Shown here piece after piece: positions 27,113-41,645 of a DNA stretch of 64,000 bases. This DNA is from Escherichia phage T5_ev219. The notes under the pieces were generated by a model. The model did not search any database. It was given only the letters and a program-made list of their open reading frames with translations, and was not told the DNA's origin. The first letter of the stretch is position 1, and every line of letters starts with the position of its first letter. The position numbers and the translations under genes were made by a program. The stretch is from the sequence record NC_134263.1; one strand, given 5' to 3'.

Positions 27113-27386
27113 AACGACAAGTAAAAGAATCAGAACTATTAGTACGTTGAGTGGTTATTTCACCGCGTTTGCTAATAGTAACGGCTGGAGTAGAGAAGTT
27201 TTTGTTAGTGTATATTTCTACTTTACCATTACGTTCCTTAACATCACGTACTTTACCATACTCGGTAATAATGCCGTTCTGTTGGACTTTAACATTACCA
27301 TTTTTCATAGAAACTTTGGTAGATGCCAGAGAACCGAAACTAACTGCGGAGATCATCAGTGCAATAATAAACTTATTCATCTTCAT
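27084..27386 (-). CDS. small secreted protein
   Basis: Track ORF trimmed to MKMNKF start, which overlaps the upstream stop; N-terminal signal-peptide-like segment. Confidence 0.45.
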   Translation of the reverse strand: MKMNKFIIALMISAVSFGSLASTKVSMKNGNVKVQQNGIITEYGKVRDVKERNGKVEIYTNKNFSTPAVTISKRGEITTQRTNSSDSFTCRYDCDFEGEE

Positions 27387-27654
27387 CCTCCCCACTACAA
27401 TCACGACATACATCATAATCGTTGAAAGAACGTTCGTGAGCTTCACCCCACCAAGAACAAGAATCGCAGAGGAACATTTCGGTTTTCTCAAGTGCTTGGC
27501 CTAAAAGATCATCAGCTTCCTCAGCAGTAATCTTCAATCCACATACATCTGCCACACGTTCTTTAATTAAGCGACCTGCCTCATGGTAAGACATACAGGT
27601 TCCAACAACACTATGCTCGACAACGTGAATAGCACAGTCTAGGCGATTTTTCAT
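27373..27654 (-). CDS. Cys-rich small protein (zinc-ribbon-like)
   Basis: 93 aa; CDSC...CRDC pairs. Confidence 0.5.
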   Translation of the reverse strand: MKNRLDCAIHVVEHSVVGTCMSYHEAGRLIKERVADVCGLKITAEEADDLLGQALEKTEMFLCDSCSWWGEAHERSFNDYDVCRDCSGEDEDE

Positions 27655-27683
27655 TTCAAACCTCTCTCATCAATTTATAAATA

Positions 27684-27712
27684 TATTATAGCAAGAAAAG
27701 AGAGGTTTAGCA
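27684..27712 (-). promoter_or_regulatory. sigma70-type promoter of the conserved family
   Basis: TTGCTA, 17 bp, TATAAT on minus strand. Confidence 0.55.
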
Positions 27713-27730
27713 AATGAATTATTTCAGAAT

Positions 27731-28078
27731 TTAGTCATAGCACCACCATAATCCACGCTTACGCATGTCATGATCGCGATTATAGTCGTAATTTTCTGGA
27801 TCTTTCATCACGCGGTGGAGTTCTTGACGATTCCCTTGACGAACCATTTTATTAGAGTGCCACTTAACATTCTTACTAATGGAATTCCAGTTATAACCAT
27901 CCTTTTTCTCATTACGAATGGTTGCTTCCTTCATTTCCTGTTCTACATCATCCCAGGATTTAGCATAAATAACACGAATCCAGTAGCCATTTTCTTTGAG
28001 GAAAGAATATTCTTGAGAGAATTGTTCTTTAGACTTCCACCACTGATCACCAGATTGTCTACGATAAGTACGGCTCAT
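27731..28078 (-). CDS. hypothetical protein
   Basis: 115-aa ORF, Trp-rich. Confidence 0.5.
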   Translation of the reverse strand: MSRTYRRQSGDQWWKSKEQFSQEYSFLKENGYWIRVIYAKSWDDVEQEMKEATIRNEKKDGYNWNSISKNVKWHSNKMVRQGNRQELHRVMKDPENYDYNRDHDMRKRGLWWCYD

Positions 28079-28199
28079 ATTACCTCCATTAAGTCTTTTA
28101 AATTAACCTAATGTGGATGAATTTTATTATACATAAACTATTTTCCTGTACACAGAAAAACCCCAGACTACTTATTCAATAGCTGGGGTTTGTTATTAA

Positions 28200-28514
28200 T
28201 TACAGATCGGGGCGTTCATCTTCGAAACAGCCTGAGCTAATTCCTTCTCCGAATCCTACAAAGCCATCAAATTCGTCATTTGAGATGCCCATAATCATTG
28301 CTTCCATTTTCCTAATTTCCGAGGTTTTCATACCTGCTTTACTATTCTTAAAGTGTTTGCGAGGGTTCCCACACATCCAACAAGAACAGATGCAAGGAGT
28401 AGTAGTGATAATACCTAACCGTTTAGGGCTTTCTTCATGTGGGAAGACTGTCCAATACTTCTTGCGGTTGTTCTTTACACGTTGCCGGTGATGGCGTCTT
28501 AATGCTCGATCCAC
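28200..28514 (-). CDS. hypothetical Cys-containing protein
   Basis: 104 aa; CICSCWMCGN cluster. Confidence 0.45.
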   Translation of the reverse strand: MDRALRRHHRQRVKNNRKKYWTVFPHEESPKRLGIITTTPCICSCWMCGNPRKHFKNSKAGMKTSEIRKMEAMIMGISNDEFDGFVGFGEGISSGCFEDERPDL

Positions 28515-28595
28515 ACATTTCTCCTAAAACTTGGGAGATAAATGGAGTTTGCTCGACTACCTTACGTAGTTCGTAGAAACCGTATCCAAGCCCCA

Positions 28596-28964
28596 TTACA
28601 TCGCCTGAGTAAATGTACGACTAATAACGTCGTTCTGCTGTTCACGCGTCAGTGAGTTAAAACGTACAGCATACCCTGAAACACGGATAGTTAATTGAGG
28701 GTATTTTTCAGGATGTTTCTGTGCATCCAAAAGCTGATCACGACTTAACACATTGACATTTAGGTGCTGACCACCTTCAATTTGAGGGGCGACTTCCACC
28801 TTGACTTCACGGAAGGATTCGGGGTCAAAATGGGGTGTGATACTTTCTAGATCCTCAACCAGAACTTTTTGTTTAAGTTCGCCATTTTTAGAGTACAGTT
28901 GAATAATCTGATTATCATGAACAAGATTAATTACGCCAGACTTAAGATTTTGATATGCTTTCAT
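28596..28964 (-). CDS. autonomous glycyl-radical cofactor, GrcA/YfiD-like
   Basis: 122 aa; C-terminal [11 protein letters not shown]...[23 protein letters not shown] matches the GrcA glycyl-radical domain as recalled. Confidence 0.7.
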
Positions 28965-29006
28965 TAGCTCTCCCCGATGTTAGAAATTGGCTCAGCTCTT
29001 TATTCT

Positions 29007-29201
29007 TTATAGTTTACCACGATATACAGAAACTGTCTTACCAGTTTGGTTCATAACGTATGCTACTTCATCTTCTTTTAAGAAGATTGCTTGATCTATT
29101 CCAGAAATAGCTATGCTTTTATTTCTGGGATTAAACCCTACGCTTTTACCAACATGAATCTGCTCACCACCATCAGTGGACATTATTTTAACTGTTAACA
29201 T
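29007..29201 (-). CDS. hypothetical protein
   Basis: 64-aa ORF. Confidence 0.4.
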   Translation of the reverse strand: MLTVKIMSTDGGEQIHVGKSVGFNPRNKSIAISGIDQAIFLKEDEVAYVMNQTGKTVSVYRGKL

Positions 29202-29238
29202 AATTGCTCCTATATTTAGCTATCTCTAGCTCTGTTAA

Positions 29239-29315
29239 TGGTAGTTAGTAGTGGATTTGAACCACTGTAGTCGCTCCGTATGAAGGAGGTGCATAACCAC
29301 TCTGCCAACTAACTA
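29239..29315 (-). tRNA. tRNA with CAT anticodon (Met, fMet or Ile-lysidine)
   Basis: Manual cloverleaf; loop TTCATAC; CCA encoded. Confidence 0.65.
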
Positions 29316-29409
29316 TTATGTTTTATTAGACTAAGTAAGTATTCTTTATACTCTATAGACCAATTAGCTTTTTTAAACTTTCCTGGACGCATAGTCTTAA
29401 TTCCTAAAT

Positions 29410-29486
29410 TTGGTACTCCGGGAGGGATTTAAACCCCCGATCTCTCGGTTATCAGCCGAGTGCTTTAGATCGCTAAGCTACCGAAG
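29410..29486 (-). tRNA. tRNA-Ile (GAT)
   Basis: Manual cloverleaf; anticodon loop CTGATAA; CCA encoded. Confidence 0.7.
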
Positions 29487-29502
29487 CATTAGAATATTTA
29501 CA

Positions 29503-29793
29503 TCATACACTGTCTAAATAAGAAGTATAATGGAATTTAGCTTCTCCAGTCTTATCTATTTCTACCTCAGTTCGTGGTACTTGACGAACTACACCATGAA
29601 TCATCTTATAGCGAATGCCTTTAGCTGGTTCATGATCTTTTGGAAATACCTGTTTAACCGTTACTACTTTATACTCTTCACGCGGTGTTAACACAACTAC
29701 TTGATCACCTTCTTTGATTTTCCAAGAAGATGGAAATTCATAGGTATATCTTTGACCACCAGTTTGGAATACTACAGAAAGATAACGCTTCAT
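29503..29793 (-). CDS. hypothetical protein
   Basis: 96-aa ORF between tRNA genes. Confidence 0.5.
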   Translation of the reverse strand: MKRYLSVVFQTGGQRYTYEFPSSWKIKEGDQVVVLTPREEYKVVTVKQVFPKDHEPAKGIRYKMIHGVVRQVPRTEVEIDKTGEAKFHYTSYLDSV

Positions 29794-29823
29794 TTGGTTT
29801 CCCTCTCATTAATTTATATAAAT

Positions 29824-29853
29824 ATTATAACAAGAAATAAGAGAGAAGGCAAA
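29824..29853 (-). promoter_or_regulatory. sigma70-type promoter of the conserved family
   Basis: TTGCCT, about 18 bp, TATAAT on minus strand. Confidence 0.5.
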
Positions 29854-29867
29854 TGAATTTTTAAATT

Positions 29868-29942
29868 TGGTGCTCCCACCAGGAATCGAACCCGGTTCAG
29901 ATGCTTACAAGGCAACTGCATCGCCAGCAATGCTTTAGGAGC
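29868..29942 (-). tRNA. tRNA-Thr (TGT)
   Basis: Manual cloverleaf; loop CTTGTAA. Confidence 0.65.
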
Positions 29943-29952
29943 GATAATCCCA

Positions 29953-30117
29953 TTATTTCAACGGGATTTCTTTTTCAATAACAGGAGACTTATCAGTCAT
30001 AACTGTCATTGCCATTTGTTGTAGAAATTCAAAGGTGAAGGCTACACGTTCTTCACCAATCTCTACTTCTACACGTTTCTTTTGTTTATCGATCTTGACT
30101 TTTAGGTTATCAGCCAT
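29953..30117 (-). CDS. small hypothetical protein
   Basis: 54-aa ORF below the track cutoff. Confidence 0.35.
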   Translation of the reverse strand: MADNLKVKIDKQKKRVEVEIGEERVAFTFEFLQQMAMTVMTDKSPVIEKEIPLK

Positions 30118-30361
30118 TAGAGAGTACAGTACTGGTAGTTGGCAATACTACAGATGAAGCAACAGTGTTTAAATGCTTTCTCCAGTCTAGGTTAAATTGT
30201 TTTCGAAACTCTTCATAAGGTTCTTCTGGATAAAAGCTAAAACCTCCTTTCTCGTCATTCAGGATAACAGAGCCGTCAGTTTGTTCGTATGCTCGGTATG
30301 TTTCTCCAATAACAATAATTCGTTTATCGGTACTTTTATTACGAAACTCAAAAACGTGCAT
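30110..30361 (-). CDS. hypothetical protein
   Basis: 83-aa ORF. Confidence 0.45.
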   Translation of the reverse strand: MHVFEFRNKSTDKRIIVIGETYRAYEQTDGSVILNDEKGGFSFYPEEPYEEFRKQFNLDWRKHLNTVASSVVLPTTSTVLSNG

Positions 30362-30377
30362 AATGTTTCCTTAAAGT

Positions 30378-30453
30378 TGGAGCGGCTAGAGGGAATCGAA
30401 CCCTACTCAGCGAGGCTTGGAAGGCCTGCGACACAACCCGTGTGCTTAACCGC
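30378..30453 (-). tRNA. tRNA-Gly (TCC), tentative
   Basis: Manual cloverleaf; good acceptor and T arm; anticodon assignment depends on stem register. Confidence 0.55.
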
Positions 30454-30461
30454 TTATTATT

Positions 30462-30537
30462 TGGCTGGAGAAGGAGGAATCGAACCTACCATTAACGGAG
30501 TCAAAGGCCGTTGTGCTAACCGTTACACTACTCTCCA
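30462..30537 (-). tRNA. tRNA-Gln (TTG)
   Basis: Manual cloverleaf; U1-A72; loop CTTTGAC. Confidence 0.65.
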
Positions 30538-30543
30538 ATAATT

Positions 30544-30619
30544 TGGCTGGGATGCCACGGATCGAACGTGGAACCTTCGGAGTCAGAGGCCGACGATCTG
30601 CCAATTGATCTACATCCCA
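30544..30619 (-). tRNA. tRNA-Gln (CTG)
   Basis: Manual cloverleaf with fully paired arms; loop CTCTGAC. Confidence 0.7.
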
Positions 30620-30632
30620 ATAATTCTTTACT

Positions 30633-30827
30633 CTATGGAAATAGAGTAACTGGCTCAGGTTCTTCAAGGCGCTTACCTTCATGATCTACTCGAATGACTC
30701 CGCATCCTTCGCAAACCACAACTGCACCATAACCTTCTTTGACTTCGGCTTCTGTAATCAGACCAGATAAGTCACCAGTATCTCTGCCCCACATATCAAT
30801 GGAGCATTGTTTGCAGAAATCAGCCAT
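30633..30827 (-). CDS. small Cys-rich protein (zinc-ribbon-like)
   Basis: 64 aa; CKQC...CEGC. Confidence 0.5.
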   Translation of the reverse strand: MADFCKQCSIDMWGRDTGDLSGLITEAEVKEGYGAVVVCEGCGVIRVDHEGKRLEEPEPVTLFP

Positions 30828-30852
30828 AGTTTATTTCCTATTTAAGTTAATT

Positions 30853-30929
30853 TGGGGTGGCTAGTGGAATTCGAATCCACATAGGCCTGATTCACAATCA
30901 GGATCATTAACCAATTATGATATAGCCAC
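30853..30929 (-). tRNA. tRNA-His (GTG)
   Basis: Manual cloverleaf, perfect stems; loop TTGTGAA. Confidence 0.75.
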
Positions 30930-31297
30930 AATTGAAAACTCGCAGGGTTAGCGAAACCATCCTCAATTAGCATGTTCTAGAATACTAATCAAGTTATCTC
31001 CTATTGCACGCAGCTCAAGACGAGTACGAATTTTCAATTGTGGCGGCTCTCAGAAACTCTTCTATTCTAGCCTCAGAAGCTTACCCCCGAACGCATGTCG
31101 GGAAAGTCTTTCCAAGAGCATCAAATAGCACCGTTACACTTTGAGCCATTGATGTATCAAGGAATAGAAGGGCTTGAACCTTCATGAGTTAGACCATTTA
31201 ACTCAACCGCTTTTAAGGTATATTTCTAGGAGTGGATGTTCCTAGTAAACCTATTCGGCAGTCCCGTCTACCAATTCCGGCATATTCCAAGAATTTT

Positions 31298-31471
31298 TTA
31301 TAAACCGGCAGAAGCCTCATTTAAAGCATCAACAATAGCTTCACGCTGGGTCATTCCATACCCGGTGGAGTCTAGGTGAGGCAAATAGGCTGCCCATCCA
31401 TTATCTGTTTCATGAAGGTATGCTTTAAATTTTTTACCATCCTTCATTGTTACAGTAACTGTTTTGCTCAT
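31298..31471 (-). CDS. small protein, HicB-antitoxin-like fold candidate
   Basis: 57-aa ORF with AGGAAT RBS; resemblance weak. Confidence 0.35.
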   Translation of the reverse strand: MSKTVTVTMKDGKKFKAYLHETDNGWAAYLPHLDSTGYGMTQREAIVDALNEASAGL

Positions 31472-31491
31472 AAGGATTCCTTATAGTTAAT

Positions 31492-31581
31492 TGGAGGAAG
31501 GTAATGGAGTCGAACCATCACCGTATCACTACAGCGGGCTAGTTTTCAAGACTAGTTGCGTACCACTACGCCCTACCTTCC
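31492..31581 (-). tRNA. tRNA-Ser (TGA), class II
   Basis: 90 nt; perfect acceptor; loop CTTGAAA; long variable arm. Confidence 0.75.
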
Positions 31582-31588
31582 ATTTGTT

Positions 31589-31679
31589 TGGCGGAAGAGG
31601 AGAGATTTGAACTCTCAAGCCGTTTTACCAGTCAGCCACTTTCCAAGCGGTTTTCGTCGCCAATTCGATTTGCTCTTCC
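31589..31679 (-). tRNA. class II tRNA, probably Ser (GGA)
   Basis: 91 nt; perfect acceptor and T arm; anticodon stem partly paired. Confidence 0.55.
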
Positions 31680-31791
31680 AATAATAAGATGATGCCTCTA
31701 TCATACCAGGCAGTTACGCCTCGCTGGGATTCGAACCCATTAAAACAGCTCAACCGAGATAGTAGGTTTAATTTACTCTGACCATCAAATT

Positions 31792-31868
31792 TGGTGCGTG
31801 ACAAGGGATTCGAACCCTCAAAACCCGACTTCTAAGGACGGTATGTATGCCAATTCCATCAATCACGC
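31792..31868 (-). tRNA. tRNA with TAG anticodon (Leu codon CUA) but short variable loop
   Basis: 77 nt; good acceptor, D, anticodon and T arms; 5-nt variable region. Confidence 0.55.
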
Positions 31869-31873
31869 GTATT

Positions 31874-31952
31874 TGGTGGAGGATAACGAATTCGAATCGT
31901 TCTGATGTCCTCGGTGCAAGCGAGGTGTCCACTCCCAGCAGACCCATCCCCC
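31874..31952 (-). tRNA. tRNA-Ala (TGC)
   Basis: Perfect anticodon stem; loop CTTGCAC. Confidence 0.7.
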
Positions 31953-32238
31953 AAATTCTTTAGTTTACTAAGGCTATTAGCTCGGCGTAACTACAGCACC
32001 TTCGCTTCGAGCGGAAGGAACTGCGTCATCTCGCAAACCCAATACACTATTCAGTTGCCGCTGAATCTAGTGGACTAATCTAGAACTTCTCCCAAATCGT
32101 AGGAATCGTGCTTTTTGGCAGCCAGTCCTAGGTCGAGCTAATACCTTAGTGAACTATGATGAGGATTTCTCCCCATCAATTTATATAAATATTATAACAA
32201 GAAATTAAGCATTAAGCAACTGCGTTTTTTCTTGAAAT

Positions 32239-32317
32239 TGGTAGATCGCCTGGGACTCGAACCCAGAACCTTCCGATTAAAAGTCGGATGCTACTAAACC
32301 TATTGAGCTAGCGACCT
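32239..32317 (-). tRNA. tRNA-Lys (TTT)
   Basis: Perfect anticodon stem; loop CTTTTAA. Confidence 0.7.
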
Positions 32318-32318
32318 A

Positions 32319-32486
32319 TTAGTAACCATTATATACTTCTTTAATAGAGTGGACTTTTAAATAGGGATGATTAGTATTAAACTCTACCATTACTTCATCC
32401 CAATTTTTACCATAATGGGCAAGTAAGGATTTTGATGTATTCTTACCTAAACGTTTGTCACTTACTACTAATCGAAATACTTTCAT
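32319..32486 (-). CDS. small hypothetical protein
   Basis: 55-aa ORF with GAGGAT RBS. Confidence 0.4.
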   Translation of the reverse strand: MKVFRLVVSDKRLGKNTSKSLLAHYGKNWDEVMVEFNTNHPYLKVHSIKEVYNGY

Positions 32487-32506
32487 TTCGAAATCCTCTA
32501 TTAAAA

Positions 32507-32584
32507 TGGAAGCGGGTGCAGGAATCGAACCTACCTCTTTCTAGCTTATGAGACTAGTGATCTCTACCAGAGATCTAACCCGCA
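32507..32584 (-). tRNA. tRNA with CAT anticodon, unpaired 1:72 (initiator-like)
   Basis: Loop CTCATAA; D stem GATC/GATC; U1-U72 mismatch. Confidence 0.6.
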
Positions 32585-32590
32585 ATTGTT

Positions 32591-32669
32591 TGGTCTCCGT
32601 GGGAGGATTTGAACCCCCGACCCTATCGCCCCAAACGAAACGCTCTGACCAAACTGAGCTACACGGAGA
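32591..32669 (-). tRNA. tRNA-Pro (TGG)
   Basis: Perfect acceptor; loop TTTGGGG. Confidence 0.65.
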
Positions 32670-32672
32670 ATA

Positions 32673-32831
32673 TTATTTCTTCAACCACAACAAAGATAAG
32701 CCCAGCATACTAAAGCCGCTAACTAATCCGATACCTTTTTCTTCTATAGTAAAAGTATCTAGATTAAATGCTGTTATAGCTATTGGCATACACCATAATG
32801 CCATAAAAACTTGAGCTATCTTGTGTTTCAT
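32673..32831 (-). CDS. small hydrophobic protein
   Basis: 52-aa ORF with GGAAGG RBS behind a family promoter. Confidence 0.4.
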   Translation of the reverse strand: MKHKIAQVFMALWCMPIAITAFNLDTFTIEEKGIGLVSGFSMLGLSLLWLKK

Positions 32832-33042
32832 TTTGCTTTCCTTCCCTTCACTTTATAAGATATATTATACAGAGAATTAAGCAGAATAGCAAATGAATTT
32901 TTAATAAATTTACTTATTGTGTAGGCCACCTGGAGGCTATGAACCCCACGGCTGACAAAGAAGTTTGCGAGACCTCTCTTAAATGCCAGAATAGACCCGC
33001 CGATCTATCGGAACCTACATAATAAGTAAACTTTATAGTGTC

Positions 33043-33162
33043 ATTCTAGACAGGATTCGAACCTGTTATCACTTGTGCGGACTTACGAGAACCATTCTTT
33101 CACTCGAATCGAACGAGCTTCTGCCCTCGCCAAGTTGGTTTCCCCATCAACCACGCTAGAAT
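33043..33162 (-). other. 120-nt tRNA-like structured element (two T-arm-like hairpins inside a 7-bp closing stem)
   Basis: CTAGAAT/ATTCTAG pair at the ends; internal GGTTCGAATCC-like and TTCGATT hairpins. Confidence 0.3.
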
Positions 33163-33284
33163 GTTTGATTGTTTTCAGTGCAAGAGTCCGAGTCTTGGAC
33201 ACGACCGCTTCGCAAGTACATAGGCAGCTTATCATGAGTCAGCACTTCCGAATTGCTAGCTCCGTGTTCTGCACTGAAATTTTA

Positions 33285-33641
33285 TTAGTTTAACCGTAAA
33301 GTATTATCTACTTCACCATTAATTGTTCGGCATTCCTCTGGGATTGCCGGGGTGGCCTTGTATTCCCACCACTCAGCACCATCATATTCCCCACGTTCTA
33401 GCCAAGTTCCATCGGCAAACCATACATTACCATAAAGTAATTGTCCACCGTATCCAGAATCATATTCAAAGTCTAGGTTATTAAGAAAATCCTCAATATC
33501 TTCTTCTGCATAACCTAAAGGTAATACCCAAACTTTTTTATCCCCATAATACCCGAATTCTATTTTAATACACTTAACTTCAGAATTAGTATTTTTTAAG
33601 GCAAGTAACAGCTCTTCTTTAGCATTACGCATATTACGCAT
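33285..33641 (-). CDS. hypothetical protein
   Basis: Track ORF 33285..33728 trimmed to Met30 because the N-terminal extension runs into tRNA-Asp. Confidence 0.5.
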   Translation of the reverse strand: MRNMRNAKEELLLALKNTNSEVKCIKIEFGYYGDKKVWVLPLGYAEEDIEDFLNNLDFEYDSGYGGQLLYGNVWFADGTWLERGEYDGAEWWEYKATPAIPEECRTINGEVDNTLRLN

Positions 33642-33666
33642 AATATATTCCCATACTGGATTAATT

Positions 33667-33743
33667 TGGCGCGACCGATGGGATTTGAACCCACATTCTC
33701 TCCCGTGACAGGGGAGTACCATTACCAAGCCAGCCCCGGTCGC
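33667..33743 (-). tRNA. tRNA-Asp (GTC)
   Basis: Perfect acceptor; loop CTGTCAC. Confidence 0.75.
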
Positions 33744-33752
33744 ATAATTTAT

Positions 33753-33938
33753 TTACTCAGCTTTGAGTTTTTCAATAGCTGCATTAAGTTCTTTAAGAAA
33801 CTCTTTTCGTACATTAAGACGATTGAGACTTACTAGTATATCATGTTTAAGTTCTTCGATGTATTTCTTTTCAACTTCAATATTGTTGATAGTGCTATCA
33901 CGATGAACTTCTAACTGTGCAATTACATTCTTGGACAT
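33753..33938 (-). CDS. hypothetical coiled-coil protein
   Basis: 61-aa ORF. Confidence 0.4.
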   Translation of the reverse strand: MSKNVIAQLEVHRDSTINNIEVEKKYIEELKHDILVSLNRLNVRKEFLKELNAAIEKLKAE

Positions 33939-34040
33939 GCTTGTTTCCTCAGTTATTAATGAAAATGGTATCTGTGGCTGAATTCGATGTCAGCAATGAT
34001 AGCTGGTTGGCTACCGGTTTACTTAACTCTACACAGAATT

Positions 34041-34118
34041 TGGCGGTTCCTGCTGGATTCGAACCAGCAACCCTCAACTTAACAAGATGCCGCTCTAACC
34101 AATTAGAGCTAAGGAACC
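34041..34118 (-). tRNA. tRNA-Asn (GTT), tentative
   Basis: Perfect acceptor, D and T arms; weak anticodon stem; loop TTGTTAA. Confidence 0.55.
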
Positions 34119-34613
34119 ATATAAGTCAGAACTAGAGTTAATACGTTCTAGATATTTACTAAGATCCCTAGAATTTATACTAAACCACTCATGTTCTTTT
34201 AAATCTTTGAAATACTGGTGAATTAGTTTTTCACCTTTTCGTTTGTCAAACCAAAAAGACCAATGCTCTAACTTATAATCCCTATAAGGGGAATAAGTCT
34301 GATATTGAGCTAATCTCTCTTTTGGATTTTGACTCATACCTATTTTATACTGATTTTTCCATGCAGGATTACTAATACAGTATACAAAACCTTCAGAAAT
34401 AGGAAGTTTATTTTCCTGCTTAAACTTTATAAAGGAAAGTGCAGCAAGTTTTCTCGAATACATAGTATTTGTATTCTTTTTGGTATTACCATTGGTTCCT
34501 GAAAGATTTATATATTCTTCCATAAATCTCTGGATTAGTTCTGCGGTTATATAGAAGGGCTCATTAGTAACAACGCCTTTCTTTACCAAACTATCAAAAA
34601 CTTTTGTATGCAC
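34095..34613 (-). CDS. GIY-YIG-like domain protein
   Basis: 172 aa; GFVYCISNP...YKIGMSQNP..R pattern; last 7 codons and stop overlap the 5' end of tRNA-Asn. Confidence 0.55.
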   Translation of the reverse strand: MHTKVFDSLVKKGVVTNEPFYITAELIQRFMEEYINLSGTNGNTKKNTNTMYSRKLAALSFIKFKQENKLPISEGFVYCISNPAWKNQYKIGMSQNPKERLAQYQTYSPYRDYKLEHWSFWFDKRKGEKLIHQYFKDLKEHEWFSINSRDLSKYLERINSSSDLYGSLALIG

Positions 34614-34633
34614 TACTTCTTTCCTTTAGTAAT

Positions 34634-34709
34634 TTGGACGACCGCATGAGATTTGAACTCACATAAAAAGGATTTGCAATCCTTCGCCTAAGCCATTCAG
34701 CCAACGGTC
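34634..34709 (-). tRNA. tRNA-Cys (GCA)
   Basis: Loop TGCAAAT. Confidence 0.65.
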
Positions 34710-34897
34710 GATTTATCTTGTTTTTCGAGATCTTCAAATTCTAAATCATTGAAGTTCCCTAGAGTACGGGAGTAGAACCCGTCTCCTGCGTCATAGCCTG
34801 ATTTGCCACAATCACACATTTTAAATTCACGAAGATGTGTGAAAATATGCTCAGAACCACAACACTTAAATCTAACTAATCGTTTCATTAGTTTCAT
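34697..34897 (-). CDS. small zinc-ribbon-like protein
   Basis: 66 aa; CCGSEH...CDCG; 3' end overlaps tRNA-Cys 5' end. Confidence 0.45.
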   Translation of the reverse strand: MKLMKRLVRFKCCGSEHIFTHLREFKMCDCGKSGYDAGDGFYSRTLGNFNDLEFEDLEKQDKSTVG

Positions 34898-34946
34898 TAG
34901 CTTCTCCAGTTCAATTTATATAATTATTATATAGAACTTTTGGAAA

Positions 34947-35231
34947 CTAAGCAACTACATTTTTTAAGAATTTGATGTCTTTCTTCTTCTTATATTTCCA
35001 CGTTAATGGATTCTGTCGATTGTGAACGCTTGAGATCTTCGTCTCGTCAAAGTTCTTCAATATCATGTAATCACAAGATAATTGTTCTAATGGAATGTGA
35101 TCACCGTCAAAAGCATATACATAAGGCTGTTGACTAGCACGATAATGATAGACTTTGTTAATTCTACGTTTCAGCGACTTATCAGCGCAGTAAATAAAGA
35201 AGTTTTCAGGATGCATCAGCATCTCCTTCAA
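34947..35231 (-). CDS. hypothetical protein
   Basis: 94-aa ORF. Confidence 0.45.
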   Translation of the reverse strand: MKEMLMHPENFFIYCADKSLKRRINKVYHYRASQQPYVYAFDGDHIPLEQLSCDYMILKNFDETKISSVHNRQNPLTWKYKKKKDIKFLKNVVA

Positions 35232-35233
35232 TT

Positions 35234-35308
35234 TGGTGCACCCTGTTCGTATCGAACGAACCTCTCAAGCTCTTCAGGCAAGCGCTAATCCATCTCAGCT
35301 AAAGGTGC
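35234..35308 (-). tRNA. tRNA-Phe (GAA), tentative
   Basis: Good acceptor and T arm; loop CTGAAGA; partial anticodon stem. Confidence 0.55.
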
Positions 35309-35315
35309 AAATTTT

Positions 35316-35391
35316 GGCAAACCTACTAGGACTCGAACCTAGACCGTACGGTTTTGGAGACCGACATGCTGTCCAGTAACACTCTAGGAAT
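35316..35391 (-). tRNA. tRNA-like, Trp (CCA) anticodon arm but unpaired acceptor stem (possible pseudogene)
   Basis: Good D, anticodon and T arms and 3' CCA; 5' and 3' acceptor strands not complementary. Confidence 0.35.
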
Positions 35392-35399
35392 GCAGAAAT

Positions 35400-35476
35400 T
35401 GGCGTCCTGTGCGGGGATCGAACCCGCAAATCCTACCTTGAAAGGGTAGTGACTTTACCAGTTTGTCTAACAGGAC
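35400..35476 (-). tRNA. tRNA-Glu (TTC)
   Basis: Perfect acceptor and anticodon stems; loop CTTTCAA. Confidence 0.7.
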
Positions 35477-35483
35477 TTAAATT

Positions 35484-35574
35484 TGGTGTTGGATGATGGA
35501 GTCGAACCACCCGAGACCCTTCCGAGTCGGCAGATTTACAGTCTGCTTCGCTACCTCTACGATACTAATCCAAC
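35484..35574 (-). tRNA. tRNA-Tyr (GTA), class II
   Basis: 91 nt; perfect acceptor; anticodon stem GCAGA/TCTGC; loop CTGTAAA. Confidence 0.7.
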
Positions 35575-35702
35575 ATATTTAAAAGTATTCAAATACTAGT
35601 TTAAACACTTTTAAATATGTTTCCGAATTAGATAACTATTATACCAAGTTTTAAGGCACTGAGCAAGTCAAATTTTAAAGAACTTGCTCAGTGCTGTATT
35701 AG

Positions 35703-35978
35703 TTAGTCGAACTTAGGAGTGACAGTTAAGGAGAACGGAAGTTCGAAAACTTCTTCGCCCTCATTACTAACGGTAACTACACGACCTTTAAGTTCAGACA
35801 TTAAAATATCAATATCAGCTTTTGCATCTGGAGCCATGCCAGCTTCAATACATTTAGCTTTAACTTCCGGTAAAAGCTCTACGTTATAGAGATAGAGCCA
35901 CTCAATCTCACCTTCCCAGTCTTCCCAGGATTTGCAGATTGCACTTTCAATACCAGTTGCTACAACACGATTTTGCAT
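35703..35978 (-). CDS. hypothetical protein
   Basis: 91-aa ORF behind a family promoter. Confidence 0.5.
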   Translation of the reverse strand: MQNRVVATGIESAICKSWEDWEGEIEWLYLYNVELLPEVKAKCIEAGMAPDAKADIDILMSELKGRVVTVSNEGEEVFELPFSLTVTPKFD

Positions 35979-36068
35979 TAATTAACTCCTTCATCAATTT
36001 ATATAACTATTATACCAGAAATTTAAAGTAAAAGGCAAGTACATTTTTAAAAATTCTGTTTGGAGGAG

Positions 36069-36275
36069 CTAAACTCCAGATTTTTCGGCCAAGTCTAGAC
36101 TAATAAGAGTTATAGCCATAATTGCTGCACCGTGTTCTTTTTCTCCGGTGTTTTTAGCAGAGTCTATAATATCCTTAATCTGTTCGTAATAACTTTTTAC
36201 TTCTTGTTCAATGCCTGCCTCGGCTATCATGCCTTTAGCCATGAATCGTTGCATGGTAATTTCAGGATTAGCCAT
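36069..36275 (-). CDS. hypothetical protein
   Basis: 68-aa ORF. Confidence 0.45.
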   Translation of the reverse strand: MANPEITMQRFMAKGMIAEAGIEQEVKSYYEQIKDIIDSAKNTGEKEHGAAIMAITLISLDLAEKSGV

Positions 36276-36450
36276 GTTGTTTCTCCAGTTTCATTTTTAA
36301 TAGTTTACAGATGAAATCAACGTCTTCATCTGTGCCTAAGTCTCTATCCTCAAGGGTCGCCTTGAAGTTTTTCGTCAATTCCATGAGGATGATTTCCCTA
36401 GAACGACGTGTTGGCGGAGGTGGATGTCTATACATCTTATTTCCTTAATT

Positions 36451-36527
36451 TGGTAGGGGTGGTGGGATTCGAACCCACAAAACCTGAATTTTAAGTCCAG
36501 TACCTATGCCAATTCGATTACACCCCC
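36451..36527 (-). tRNA. tRNA with TAA anticodon (Leu codon UUA) but short variable loop
   Basis: 77 nt; good acceptor, anticodon and T arms; D-loop AATTGGCATA shared with 31792..31868. Confidence 0.55.
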
Positions 36528-36628
36528 GTGTAATCAGTTTATTAGTTGATACATATTATAGCCTAAAGAAAACCCTACTACTAATCCTACTAACCAACCA
36601 ATATAATAATCTTTTAATTTCACGGGTG

Positions 36629-36814
36629 TCAACCTCGTTCAATATCTAGAGAAATACCACAGGTAGGATTAATGCCTGTGCCTTTGCACGTCGGACAAAC
36701 CCAGATATTACAGAATGTATCCCCTGCTTCTGCATCAGAACTTTCTCCAACTCCTAGACAGTCAGGACAGGCACATTCTTCTAGCTCTTGCTTGAGTTCT
36801 TGAAACTTAGACAT
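36629..36814 (-). CDS. small zinc-ribbon protein
   Basis: 61 aa; CACPDC...CPTCKG. Confidence 0.5.
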   Translation of the reverse strand: MSKFQELKQELEECACPDCLGVGESSDAEAGDTFCNIWVCPTCKGTGINPTCGISLDIERG

Positions 36815-36823
36815 ATAGTTTCC

Positions 36824-37012
36824 TTATTCAATTACTTTTGAGGCTTCAAGGGAGTCGATATAGTGTACGTTTTCTACCATAATCATATAATCTGCCACTT
36901 TATCCATAGCCTGAGCTTCAGAGGTAGCCCTGGCTAACCTATATCCTTTTTTATATTCATCCGGGTATTCCCTATCTGGAATAAACACAACATAAACTAG
37001 GTATAGTTCCAC
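36824..37012 (-). CDS. hypothetical protein
   Basis: 62-aa ORF. Confidence 0.4.
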   Translation of the reverse strand: MELYLVYVVFIPDREYPDEYKKGYRLARATSEAQAMDKVADYMIMVENVHYIDSLEASKVIE

Positions 37013-37033
37013 TTGTAACCCCTCTAATTAAAC

Positions 37034-37111
37034 TGGTGGCTCCCCGAGGATTCGAACCTACGTACCTTCCGGTTATGAGCCGGGTGCTCATACCATATGA
37101 GCTTGAGAACC
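37034..37111 (-). tRNA. tRNA with CAT anticodon, E. coli fMet-like anticodon arm
   Basis: Anticodon arm CCGG-CTCATAA-CCGG; D stem GCTC/GAGC; weak T stem. Confidence 0.5.
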
Positions 37112-37117
37112 AGAATT

Positions 37118-37206
37118 TGGCGGAAGAAGTGGGAATCGAACCCACAAGGCTATATTTCAAACCGACAGATTAGCAATCTGCTGCAATACCGTTATGCTAT
37201 TCTTCC
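37118..37206 (-). tRNA. tRNA-Ser (GCT), class II
   Basis: 89 nt; perfect acceptor; loop TTGCTAA. Confidence 0.65.
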
Positions 37207-37310
37207 GAATTTATAAGATATATTATATTAGAAATTTAGCTTCATAGCAAGAAAATTTTTCAAGTTTTCGGTAGACATCTCATCCACATCTACAGGAGAA
37301 ACAAATCCAT

Positions 37311-37745
37311 TTAATTGTCTAGCAAATTTTCACCAGCAGGATCATTATCCCCAACAGCTACCAATTTAAAAGGTAATAATTTCAGTTGCTTTAATAACGC
37401 TTTTCCTGGAGAAGAACCCAACATTGCTAGGGCTGGATAACCAGCGTTATGTAACGCAACTGCCTTAAATACAGATTCAGCGATCAATACTACTTTTTCA
37501 TCTCCATTGAGAGTTTCTAGTCCCCATACACACTGGGTAGTAGAATAAGTAAAATATTTAGCTTCAAAGGGACACTTACCATGACCTTTTGGAGCAGAAG
37601 GATTATAAGTTTGATAGCCCCTCAACATCCCAGAGAAGTCATACAACGGGACTGTTAGCCATCCTTCCGGACTTAACCAGCAATGATATTTTTCTGTATC
37701 AAATCCTCTAGATAAGAGGTGCTGTGTTAGCTCATCAACATTCAT
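37311..37745 (-). CDS. Toprim-domain protein (primase-like C-terminal fragment)
   Basis: Track ORF trimmed to Met18 because Met1 lies inside the promoter; LIAESV...ALHNAG...AMLGSS...VGDNDPAG resembles DnaG Toprim motifs. Confidence 0.45.
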   Translation of the reverse strand: MNVDELTQHLLSRGFDTEKYHCWLSPEGWLTVPLYDFSGMLRGYQTYNPSAPKGHGKCPFEAKYFTYSTTQCVWGLETLNGDEKVVLIAESVFKAVALHNAGYPALAMLGSSPGKALLKQLKLLPFKLVAVGDNDPAGENLLDN

Positions 37746-37920
37746 ATCTGGTTCCTCTCTCAAATTTATAGATATATTATACAGAGAATTTAGCATTCAA
37801 GCAATCAAATTTTTTAACTTTTTAGAGGAAAATCATAGGGCACTTAAGGGCAGCAGATAAGTGGTGAGGACCAAAATTTGTGACCCCACTAAAAATCCGG
37901 GGGCAATTTTTAAAGACCCT

Positions 37921-37949
37921 TTGACATTTTCGCCGGGGTAGTGTAAAGT
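37921..37949 (+). promoter_or_regulatory. sigma70-like promoter for the plus-strand cassette
   Basis: TTGACA, 17-bp spacer, TAAAGT. Confidence 0.45.
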
Positions 37950-38011
37950 ATATGTTATGGATGAGTGATCAAAGAGACACACATTTTCTATATACTAGGA
38001 GGTGTCAAAAA

Positions 38012-38992
38012 ATGACAGAAGAAGTAGCTAAGAGTCCTGAGACCGTCGCTAGCGTAGCAGCAGAACTGCATCGTCACGAGGAATCAGATAAGAAAAAGTG
38101 GGAGAAGGTCAGAGCCTACGAAGAAGAACATCGTGAACACGATGATAAAGATGAAGAAGATGACGATGATGTACGTTGTCATAAATATGGAAAATATAAA
38201 ATGCAAGAACCAGTAAACGTATTTACTAACGGCTTCCCTGGCATGGGTGCATTCCCAGCTAACGCAAGTGCTTTCGGTGGAGAAGGTATGGGTCTATTCG
38301 GAGCTATCCTAATCGGTGCTCTATTAACCGGCGGATTTGGTGGTTTTGGTGGTTTTGGTCGTGGTGCTGGCGTTGCCGCTGAAGGAACCGCTGTGGACGC
38401 GATCCTTTCTAACCAGGATACTGCAAGTATTCTAGCTGCAATCAATACTACTCGTACAGAAGCTAACCAGGGCACTGGGGCTGTTCTAAGTGCAGTAAAC
38501 GGTGTGGGAGCTGCTCAAGCTGCTAGCACTCAGCAAGTTCTGACTACTATCTACGGTACAGGTGCTAATCTGTCAAACCAGATCTGTGCTGAAACTCGTA
38601 ACGTTATTCAGGGTCAGTTCGATCTTTCTCGTCAGATGGATCAATCTTTCGCTGCTAACCAGATAGCACGTGCTCAAGATAAGTTTGACTCTGCTCAGAT
38701 TGCTTTCCAGCAGTCTATTCAGACCAACAACCAGTTTGCCGCTGTTCAGGCTCAGATGTGCGCTAACCAGAACGCTATCGAACGTCAGCTTGCTGAATGT
38801 TGCTGTGAGCTTCAGACTGCGATCGCTGGTGTAACTACTGCACGTATCCAGGACGAACTGAATGAATGCCGTCTGCGCGAAGCAATCGCTGCAGGTAGCG
38901 GTGCAAATGGTCAGGTAATCAACCAAATCGCTGTAAGTCTTGGTGCTATCACTCAGACTCTGGCTGGTCTGCAGGCTAAACTGCCGGCTTAA
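38012..38992 (+). CDS. Gly/Ala/Gln/Asn-rich low-complexity protein with central hydrophobic Gly-rich segment
   Basis: Track ORF trimmed to MTEEVAK with AGGAGG RBS; acidic N-terminus, GMGLFGAILIGALLTGGFGGFGGFG segment, Q/A/N-rich C-terminus with ECCCEL. Confidence 0.6.
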   Translation: MTEEVAKSPETVASVAAELHRHEESDKKKWEKVRAYEEEHREHDDKDEEDDDDVRCHKYGKYKMQEPVNVFTNGFPGMGAFPANASAFGGEGMGLFGAILIGALLTGGFGGFGGFGRGAGVAAEGTAVDAILSNQDTASILAAINTTRTEANQGTGAVLSAVNGVGAAQAASTQQVLTTIYGTGANLSNQICAETRNVIQGQFDLSRQMDQSFAANQIARAQDKFDSAQIAFQQSIQTNNQFAAVQAQMCANQNAIERQLAECCCELQTAIAGVTTARIQDELNECRLREAIAAGSGANGQVINQIAVSLGAITQTLAGLQAKLPA

Positions 38993-39439: not shown

Positions 39440-39634
39440 ATGTGTTGCAGAAAATCTGTTTCGTGCTGCCCAATGCCTGTAGCACGTTGTTGCTCTCCAG
39501 CAATGTTTACGCAAATACCGGCGTTCAATCCGTTTGCCTTTAAGCCTACTCTTATCCTGCCCCCTAGAGTAGATTTTCAGTCAAGATTGGCCTCCCGTAT
39601 GGGTGGTTGCTGTAACAAGAGTATATGGTTCTAA
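39440..39634 (+). CDS. Cys-rich small protein with four CC doublets
   Basis: 64 aa; AAGGAGG RBS; MCCRK..SCCP..RCCSP...GGCCNK. Confidence 0.5.
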   Translation: MCCRKSVSCCPMPVARCCSPAMFTQIPAFNPFAFKPTLILPPRVDFQSRLASRMGGCCNKSIWF

Positions 39635-40811: not shown

Positions 40812-41313
40812 TTTAAGTATTTTTAAGAACTCTCGTAAAAACTCTTAAAAATACAGACGATACCGGGAGAGTCATAAGTCTCACTCATTAAGTATTTCAA
40901 GACAAAATACAGTAACGTCTATTATTTTCCAGTTTAAGTCAGGGTGACTTAGTGGTTATGTCCTGCGGTATATTGAGGACTCGGTTAGGCTTGGGGTCAT
41001 GACTTCCCGCCTTTTGCTGCTACTCAACAGGAGTTATCGCGAATTACCTGTGCTATTGTGCACCATTAGTGACATCTCTCATGTCAGCATTTCCCACTTT
41101 GTGGATAGCTTGAAAAACTACTCCGATATGGAGAAAGAACTTCACTATCCTAGAATACCTTCTAAAGTTCTTCTTTAGCCTGGACATAGTTAAATCGTAA
41201 TAAAACTATTCAGCAGACTGGTTGGTTAGTCTGGAACCAACTACCGCGTGGTTTAGGCAGTGCGCAACTAACCTCGGAAGCTTTTACGTTAAAAGCATCA
41301 GTTATCCAGTTCT

Positions 41314-41385
41314 TACCGACCGTAGGATTCGAACCTACATCTTCCACCAGTTACGGCTTGGTAATACCAATTATACTAGGACGGC
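41314..41385 (-). tRNA. tRNA-like element (no encoded CCA; possible pseudogene)
   Basis: T arm GTAGG-TTCGAAT-CCTAC; acceptor with one mismatch; non-canonical anticodon loop. Confidence 0.3.
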
Positions 41386-41645
41386 AGTGTTACTACATAA
41401 GTGATTTCCACACCCCACTATTTATAAATTAGAGAAGAGTTTAGGGGAGAGGTTTCAGACGCCCCATTTTACACGTTCTAGCCACTAACCGGGATTGCCG
41501 CCCCCTGTGTACTAGTTTTCCAACTAACCCACCGACTCTATTCAATGCGCTCCGGTTGGGATTCTGCACTCAGCGTAATCGGCTCGCTGTTCTCTAATTT
41601 ATGAATATATTATACAGAATTTATAGGCATTTAGCAAATAAATTT

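Follow-up and report, generated by a model that had tools for sequence, protein, structure and literature searches.

In phage T5, a tRNA-rich region is both dispensable and a source of anti-defense functions (PMC11464382, PMC11555353, 10.1101/2023.03.15.532788). Viable deletion mutants lack 3–8 kb of this region, the deletion covering 30661–38625 in T5Mos and 29191–32442 in T5-123 (PMC11464382). Among the elements encoded there, tRNA-Lys counteracts PARIS (PMC11464382), tRNA-Tyr counteracts retron Eco7, and Rad, a protein that bears a primase annotation, counteracts both Eco2 and Eco7 (PMC10644984, PMC11555353, 10.1101/2023.03.15.532788); the T5 TOPRIM "primase" ORF071 was identified experimentally as this anti-retron protein (PMC10644984, PMC11555353). 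Here we consider the equivalent region of Escherichia phage T5_ev219 (NC_134263.1), in a stretch of 64,000 nucleotides that we refer to as the window, and within it five small, cysteine-bearing open reading frames (ORFs) on the minus strand: O1 (27373–27654, 93 aa), O2 (28200–28514, 104 aa, with a GTG start), O3 (30633–30827, 64 aa), O4 (34697–34897, 66 aa), and O5 (36629–36814, 61 aa). An earlier note on the same DNA had taken them for a family of small zinc-ribbon-like proteins interspersed with tRNAs. Our comparisons indicate instead that O1–O5 belong to five unrelated, uncharacterized families that have already been catalogued, and that the proposed zinc-ribbon family does not exist.

The 10.3-kb region matched 631 phage records, the best of them T5-like phages (for example chee24, with 96% identity and 95% of the query covered), and its genes are arranged as in the early tRNA region of T5, in synteny with both T5 and chee24. 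By these sequence matches the window belongs to a T5-like phage (Tequintavirus). All five ORFs are already known as uncharacterized genes: annotated proteins from public T5-like phages match them with 90–100% identity. The families PHROG 2855 (O1), 4499 together with 6828 (O2), 2210 (O3), 7042 (O4), and 6060 (O5), and the T5 genes T5.053, T5.055, and T5.062, which are the homologs of O1, O2, and O3, represent the same genes, with nothing substantive differing; O1–O3 share 90–94% identity with the T5 proteins, and T5 itself lacks O4 and O5. Four of the five PHROG labels are without function and the fifth, "Q-like", is doubtful. No function is assigned to any of the five in the literature searched, and searches of PDB, Pfam, and NCBIfam with O1–O4 gave nothing beyond DUF7695 for O4.

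Coding status and cysteine motifs

All five ORFs are present where the earlier note had placed them, and they are real genes, since they combine low ratios of nonsynonymous to synonymous differences (pN/pS, 0.11–0.29) with Shine-Dalgarno sequences and invariant core cysteines. Pooled pN/pS values, resting on 133–789 synonymous differences, were 0.155 for O1, 0.106 for O2, 0.289 for O3, 0.293 for O4, and 0.194 for O5. A Shine-Dalgarno sequence of the GGAG/AGGA type stands 6–12 nt before the start codon of each ORF, and the core cysteines are invariant in 10–55 distinct homologs per ORF, drawn from 64 related loci. Full-length conservation extends to hundreds of phage records (293–834 annotated records per ORF). 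The description of these ORFs as conserved, small, and cysteine-clustered, in an early, dispensable, tRNA-rich region, is borne out, and their translation is probable.

The shortness of the ORFs might suggest that they are spurious, either as chance frames between tRNA genes or as decayed zinc-finger HNH homing endonucleases. T5 has homing endonuclease genes, several of them HNH, scattered through the same block; moreover, O4 overlaps a tRNA, and the annotation of chee24 gives O2 as a 43-aa fragment only. However, we found no Pfam match to HNH or any other endonuclease at E-values up to 1, the O2 and O3 families are spread over many unrelated phages, and the selection and conservation data given above refute the idea, which retains practically no probability.

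The cysteine motifs themselves are well above chance. In a crude gene set of the window, 1.35% of residues are cysteine, and shuffling residues among the window's small proteins gave an expectation of 0.01 small proteins with a CxxC...CxxC pattern, against three observed. Their concentration in the tRNA block is weakly supported: the pattern occurs in 3 of 28 small ORFs in the block and in 0 of 57 in the rest of the window (Fisher p = 0.033, uncorrected), a value that is only indicative because the heuristic gene set used for the test mishandles the GTG start of O2.

Not all of the earlier description applies to all of the ORFs. Paired CxxC-type motifs, which it had attributed to the whole group, are found in three of the five, O1, O3, and O5, whereas O2 has a single cluster and O4 has no CxxC. 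The ORFs were said to be interspersed with tRNAs, and this holds for O3, O4, and O5, which are embedded in an array of 21 tRNA genes (29239–37206, minus strand, predicted by ARAGORN), but not for O1 and O2, which lie upstream of its first tRNA. The term zinc-ribbon-like fits only O1 and O3, and these by motif; O5 appears to carry a DnaJ-type CxxCxGxG finger, O4 resembles DUF7695, and O2 is rich in Arg and has a CxCxxC cluster. The further suggestion of the earlier note, that such proteins often inhibit host proteins, is a guess as applied to these five.

Relationships among the five proteins

Neither direct nor profile-based comparison connected the five proteins. All-against-all BLASTP gave a best E-value of 0.24 in a five-sequence database, and comparison of the family alignments by HHalign gave a probability of no more than 1.6% for all 10 pairs. 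Each protein instead has a full-length match to a different PHROG (E-values from 1.6e-30 to 5e-41), and PHROGs are built by remote-homology clustering. The physical properties are similarly disparate: net charges are −13 for O1, +6 for O2, −7 for O3, 0 for O4, and −7.5 for O5, with pI values spread from 4.1 to 9.3, and the residues between the two CxxC pairs number 16 in O1, 30 in O3, and 20 in O5. A common two-CxxC architecture was not found across the five, the arrangement being CxCxCxxC in O2 and CC...CxC in O4.

Nor do the five share a phage distribution, as a local expansion would give. Among about 27 T5-like loci, O1–O3 are nearly universal, while O4 is present in 12 and O5 in 14. O1, with 517 phage records, is almost wholly restricted to Demerecviridae, and O5 is confined to T5-like phages (eight clusters), whereas the O3 family comprises 541 clusters and O2 is widespread, including in temperate-type contigs. 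These differences, with O1 and O5 narrow, O4 and O5 patchy, and O2 and O3 wide, point to independent histories.

The view in the earlier note, that the five are diverged paralogs of one zinc-ribbon family duplicated within the tRNA region, draws on the facts that all of them are small, bear cysteines, and lie on the same strand within 9.5 kb, and that three of the five have the CxxC...CxxC pattern in common. Against these stand the lack of pairwise similarity, the low HHalign probability for every pair, the assignment to five PHROGs, the unequal spacers, the absence of the pattern from O2 and O4, the range of pI, and the mismatched phage distributions. On the BLASTP, HHalign, and PHROG results we reject shared ancestry, which is largely refuted and, in our estimate, extremely unlikely.

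O5 and the antitermination label

Anti-TRAP, which is defined by its oligomeric assembly and its binding of TRAP, stands alone as a mini-protein of some 53 aa with a single zinc site, and fingers of the DnaJ, Anti-TRAP, and lambda Q type serve mainly as protein-contact surfaces. By its sequence, O5 is best described as a stand-alone finger of this type. Its paired cysteines (C16xxC19 ... C40xxC43, with the variable C14, C35, and C52 in addition) lie in the motifs CPDCLGVG and CPTCKGTG (nt 36674–36769), which follow an N-terminal helix, and the residues invariant in 11 sequences, C16, C19, G21, G23, C40, C43, G45, and G47, make up exactly two CxxCxGxG motifs. O5 itself, which matches PHROG 6060 with an E-value of 3e-33, scores below the Pfam cut-offs for Anti-TRAP (19.9 vs. 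32 bits) and DnaJ_CXXCXGXG (15.6 vs. 32.7 bits); family-wide, Anti-TRAP was matched by 9 of 11 members (best E-value 5.7e-6) and DnaJ_CXXCXGXG by 8 of 11 (best 3e-5), and two relatives carry a precomputed PF15777 match.

An AlphaFold2 (AF2) model of O5, with a predicted local distance difference test (pLDDT) score of 80, has a helix at residues 3–13 and strands at 24–26 and 37–39 that form a short hairpin between the knuckles. Foldseek matched it to, among others, 1exk and 2ctt, both of them DnaJ zinc-finger structures, and structure and profile searches together gave weak matches to the zinc fingers of UvrA, lambda Q, and DnaJ. Compared with predicted viral structures, the model retrieved its own family first and then many small phage finger proteins of the DnaJ/Anti-TRAP type. 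O5 resembles Anti-TRAP (PF15777) and the cysteine-rich domain of DnaJ (PF00684) in its CxxCxGxG motifs, of which it has two, both invariant, within about 60 residues; these would be enough for one Zn(Cys)4 center. It differs from Anti-TRAP in the spacer between the motifs, which is 20 residues in O5 and shorter in Anti-TRAP, in its N-terminal helix, and in its host group, since O5 belongs to a phage of enterobacteria, which to our knowledge lack TRAP.

Many GenBank records name O5 a Q-type transcription antiterminator, and the PHROG label likewise reads "anti-termination protein Q-like". The finger of lambda Q (PDB 4mo1, 7ubm) is indeed also a double CxxCxGxG with a spacer of similar length: residues 117–151 of lambda Q (RCRDCHGTG...ECGRCKGVG) align with residues 15–47 of O5 in a family-profile search (E-value 0.055–0.07), and the Q chain of 7ubm is the second Foldseek match of O5 (E-value 0.22, probability 0.84). 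However, none of these matches is significant (E-values 0.055–0.22), and the remaining approximately 170 residues of lambda Q have no counterpart in O5. The full-length Q architecture, with its DNA-binding and RNA-polymerase-binding body, was not found. Because O5 consists of the finger only, the label is explained by the finger motif and is unjustified; "antitermination protein Q-like" is an over-extension of a one-motif match, and we consider it very unlikely that O5 acts as a Q antiterminator.

Zinc-ribbon motifs in O1 and O3

O1 has a variable helical N-terminal part, a conserved C-terminal module, and an acidic tail. The module, FLCDSC-x16-CRDC, covers residues 61–86 (nt 27397–27474), and the conserved part can be written FLCDSCxWW-AHE-S-NDYD-CRDC, after which the acidic tail begins. 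The two cysteine pairs, C63xxC66 and C83xxC86, are accompanied by three variable cysteines. In all 23 homologs the four knuckle cysteines (C63, C66, C83, and C86) are retained; C7 and C38 are lost in a divergent copy (locus L022), and the N-terminal 60 residues diverge in the most distant copy. O1 matches PHROG 2855 with an E-value of 1.6e-30, and we found no relative in Pfam, NCBIfam, or PDB.

No other protein of the five is as widespread as O3, which is present in 834 phage records that include Felixounavirus, rV5-like, Pseudomonas, and Stenotrophomonas phages. The cysteine pairs of O3, C5xxC8 (nt 30804–30815) and C39xxC42 (nt 30702–30713), belong to a nearly invariant N-terminal module, MADFCKQC ... 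GDL ... CEGCG, and M1, A2, D3, C5, K6, C8, C39, C42, and G51, including both knuckles, are invariant in 34 diverse sequences. The match to PHROG 2210 has an E-value of 1.7e-37. The 541 clusters of the family are defined at 50% identity, and in nearly all cases the module starts at residue 1. We found no Pfam or PDB relative of O3 and no conserved neighbor gene, and its long homologs showed no informative domain fusion; one of them carried DUF3846. T5.062 lies at 29980–30180 in T5. The T5-123 deletion spans it, assuming the same T5 coordinates, which indicates that the O3 gene is dispensable in the laboratory.

Compared with generic zinc ribbons (Zn_ribbon_13, Zn_ribbon_LapB/rubredoxin-like, and ribosomal eS27), in which two CxxC knuckles sit on beta-hairpins, O1 and O3 are alike in their patterns, CxxC-x16-CxxC and CxxC-x30-CxxC, respectively, and in the invariance of the cysteines. 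However, neither has a significant match to a named zinc-ribbon family or solved structure; a few members of the O3 family gave sporadic weak matches to Pfam zinc ribbons (E-values 0.004–0.07), and neither the MADFCKQC N-terminus of O3, which is invariant, nor its conserved GDL motif has a counterpart in the known ribbons.

The C-terminus of O3 varies between lineages. Homologs outside T5-like phages (loci L031–L064) have an additional conserved C-terminal G-x-C-x4-C-x2-H-G, which could be a second metal site; in the T5 lineage it is lost and GKRLEEPEP stands in its place. Some long members of the family have very acidic, Cys-rich tails.

O2 and its adjoining genes

O2, the homolog of T5.055/ORF053, begins with an Arg-rich N-terminus, RALRRHHRQRVKNNRKKYW (nt 28455–28508), followed by the cysteine cluster CICSCWMCGNPRK (nt 28356–28394) and then a variable acidic tail. 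The cysteines form the single cluster C41-x-C43-x-C45-xx-C48, and judged by this motif O2 is not a zinc ribbon. It matches PHROG 4499 (E-value 5e-41) and, on the tail, PHROG 6828; the T5_ev219 protein is 100% identical and T5.055 is 90% identical. The signature shared with 48 non-T5 homologs is RA-x-RR(HH)-x-RLK-x-KR ... CSCWMCGNPRK ... T-[IL]-QE, in which the only cysteines always present are the CxCxxC triplet, C41 and the His pair varying in distant homologs. The family has 144 relatives in viral contigs, including contigs of temperate type, where its neighbors are loosely lysis and terminase genes only, and it extends to Erwinia jumbo phages and Rhizobium phages. An AF2 model of O2 was helical with a pLDDT of 53 and was unusable.

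Directly upstream of O2 lies a gene for a 122-aa GrcA/YfiD-like glycyl-radical domain protein (28596–28964, minus strand), which relatives label variously as pyruvate formate-lyase, autonomous glycyl radical cofactor, or acetyltransferase-related. A link between the two genes was considered and rejected, the adjacency not being kept in Erwinia, Rhizobium, and Pantoea phages. Between them is a 53-aa ORF (28435–28596, minus strand) that overlaps the start of O2 at 28514 and whose ATG overlaps the stop codon of the GrcA-like gene (TAATG). The first 22 residues of this ORF match the N-terminus of 121-aa O2 homologs in phiR2-01 (Yersinia) and UTK0009 (Salmonella) with an E-value of 2e-7, and in the window the leader is one base out of frame with the O2 core. 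The arrangement suggests either that an ancestral longer protein was split or that the parts are joined by frameshifting.

O4 and tRNA-Cys

The four cysteines of O4, C12C13 ... C28xC30 (nt 34808–34864), include no CxxC and are invariant in 12 homologs. O4 matches PHROG 7042 with an E-value of 4e-37. Its closest Pfam family is DUF7695 (PF24749), which aligns over positions 1–50 of 58 with a score of 23.6 bits against a cut-off of 25 (E-value 4.5e-5), and 9 of 9 members of the O4 family match it at E-values of about 2–5e-5. The two are similar in size and the positions of the cysteines are conserved, O4 being formally just outside the family. DUF7695 was not mentioned in the literature searched.

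The last 14 nt of O4 (34697–34710), including the stop codon, lie inside the tRNA-Cys gene (34635–34710). O4 is directly upstream of tRNA-Cys in every locus checked, and tRNA-Cys is annotated under many further matches. In two related phages (loci L020 and L002), the O4 homolog is about 30 residues longer and has an extra CxxC...CxxC module before tRNA-Cys. Judged against these longer forms, O4 in the window looks like the product of a deletion that fused the end of the ORF to the tRNA.

Proposed role of the five proteins and rival explanations

The block that holds O1–O5 is an ordinary accessory-gene region, dispensable, tRNA-rich, and recombination-prone, for which the name anti-defense island is also used. 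We consider it reasonably probable that the five are independent mini-protein genes gathered in this accessory block of a T5-like phage and that their products are metal-stabilized, stoichiometric binders; metal binding, the binder role, and the targets are what we infer for them. Each protein is too small for a hydrophobic core, and most likely a single structural metal site would hold its fold, as a Zn(Cys)4 site in O1, O3, O4, and O5, for which a metal-stabilized mini-fold is plausible from the conserved cysteines, and through the CxCxxC cluster in O2, where the fourth ligand is uncertain. Stoichiometric binding, not enzymatic catalysis, would be their most likely mode of action, with the acidic O1, O3, and O5 binding proteins (O5 through its DnaJ/Anti-TRAP/lambda-Q-type finger) and the basic, Arg-rich O2 binding nucleic acid. 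Their common Cys-rich appearance would then be convergence imposed by small size rather than a sign of common descent, and the closeness of the five genes would reflect where accessory genes accumulate in the genome.

Several points weigh against this interpretation. The sites in O1 and O3 may be Fe(Cys)4 sites of the rubredoxin-like kind, and O2 may not bind metal as a monomer, because its fourth metal ligand is not conserved; the modeling of O2 failed, and a usable model was obtained only for O5. Experiments on the region are also unfavorable, in that fragments of the SP15 tRNA region without Rad or tRNA-Tyr gave no rescue from retrons Eco2 and Eco7, and 8-kb deletion mutants were sensitized to only 2 of 33 defense systems tested (PMC11555353).

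Those experiments bear equally on the proposal that the five include at least one protein dedicated to anti-defense, as an inhibitor of bacterial immune systems. The proposal has the location in its favor, since the ORFs share a block with the anti-PARIS and anti-retron tRNAs and with Rad, whose homolog in the window is a 161-aa TOPRIM-type ORF (37311–37796, minus strand) labeled "DNA primase" in relatives; O3–O5 lie within the tRNA array, 0.5–6.5 kb from the Rad homolog, and O1 and O2 just upstream of the array. The patchy presence of O4 and O5 is typical of arms-race genes, and O1, O3, and O5 are small and acidic, like the T5 PARIS triggers Ptr1 and Ptr2 (PMC11464382). However, Rad and tRNA-Tyr alone accounted for the SP15 fragments active against retrons (PMC11555353), and this screen and the 2 of 33 systems together give no positive anti-defense support for ORFs inside the deletion, the carriage of O4 and O5 by SP15 being unchecked. 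Furthermore, almost all T5-like phages carry O1–O3, and purifying selection on the three is strong, a pattern that suits housekeeping host takeover better than arms-race turnover. An anti-defense role therefore seems to us rather unlikely. We also consider it unlikely that at least one of the mini-proteins specifically inhibits or modulates a defined partner early in infection, a role for which O5 and O3 would be the candidates. O5 might be a free-standing copy of the lambda-Q/Anti-TRAP-type finger that docks on host RNA polymerase or another host protein and tunes transcription or defense in those T5-like phages that carry it, and the near-invariant module of O3, in 541 clusters and many virulent phage lineages, would point to one conserved bacterial target that matters generally for phage infection.

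The interleaving with tRNA genes could also mean that O1–O5 are tied to the tRNAs themselves, as factors in tRNA or RNA binding, processing, or protection. O4 overlaps tRNA-Cys in the window and abuts it in every locus checked, and O2 is Arg-rich and basic. In addition, an O2 homolog lies inside a tRNA array in the unrelated Rhizobium phage RHph_TM61, a tRNA lies 29–691 nt from the O2 homolog in four other non-T5 loci, and in Erwinia phage MadMel a putative RNA 2'-phosphotransferase is encoded three genes away from the O2 homolog. However, among 48 non-T5 O2 loci, 40 showed no tRNA within fetched flanks of up to 10 kb, as did 25 of 35 non-T5 O3 loci within theirs; with tRNAs at only 8 of 48 and 10 of 35 loci, respectively, we reject a general tRNA association outside T5-like phages. 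In the window, O1 and O2 stand upstream of the array, tRNA arrays and small accessory genes share accessory regions anyway, and their acidity makes O1, O3, and O5 improbable RNA binders. A tie to the tRNAs is therefore distinctly unlikely, and we continue to favor independent, metal-stabilized binders as the explanation.

Other features of the region

The Rad homolog at 37311–37796 occupies the position of T5.076, which is likewise labeled "DNA primase". Within the array, a 172-aa ORF (34095–34613, minus strand) that matches PHROG 5032, and that relatives label as a T5orf172 domain protein, lies between tRNA-Asn (34041–34118) and tRNA-Cys, its 3' end overlapping tRNA-Asn by 24 nt. Some relatives do not have this ORF, and in them tRNA-Cys and tRNA-Asn are a few nucleotides apart; it may be a mobile-element-type gene inserted in the array. 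Beyond the array, ARAGORN predicts a 74-nt "tRNA-Ser" with the anticodon ACT (41313–41386, minus strand), which is unusually short for a serine tRNA and has an unusual anticodon; a tRNA-Ser(act), of 90 nt, is also annotated in Rhizobium phage RHph_TM61.

Two further small ORFs lie near O1–O5. Between O1 and O2, a 115-aa ORF (27731–28078, minus strand) is a full-length member of Pfam DUF7295 (E-value 6e-54), a further uncharacterized phage family that is Trp- and Arg-rich. A 64-aa Cys-rich ORF at 39440–39634, outside the list of the earlier note, is on the plus strand, opposite to O1–O5, in a small plus-strand operon of higher GC content (47%). Its eight cysteines form four CC doublets (MCCRKSVSCCPMPVARCC...GGCCNK), and it is 100% identical to T5.079, with no PHROG match.

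Implications

As they stand, these results are of little significance for phage biology, since the five are hypothetical proteins found in hundreds of T5-like genomes and already represented in PHROGs and Pfam. The useful results are that the reading of the five as a family is rejected, that the "Q-like" label is corrected, and that the O3 and O2 families are singled out. The correction is of use because the mis-annotation has spread: instead of a Q antiterminator, O5 is a stand-alone finger of the DnaJ/Anti-TRAP type. Another use is to flag O3 (PHROG 2210, 541 clusters) and O2 (PHROG 4499, with its CSCWMCGNPRK motif) as large, sharply conserved, and uncharacterized families. More generally, cysteine clusters in small phage ORFs would be convergent structural devices, and a common motif of this kind is no evidence of homology.

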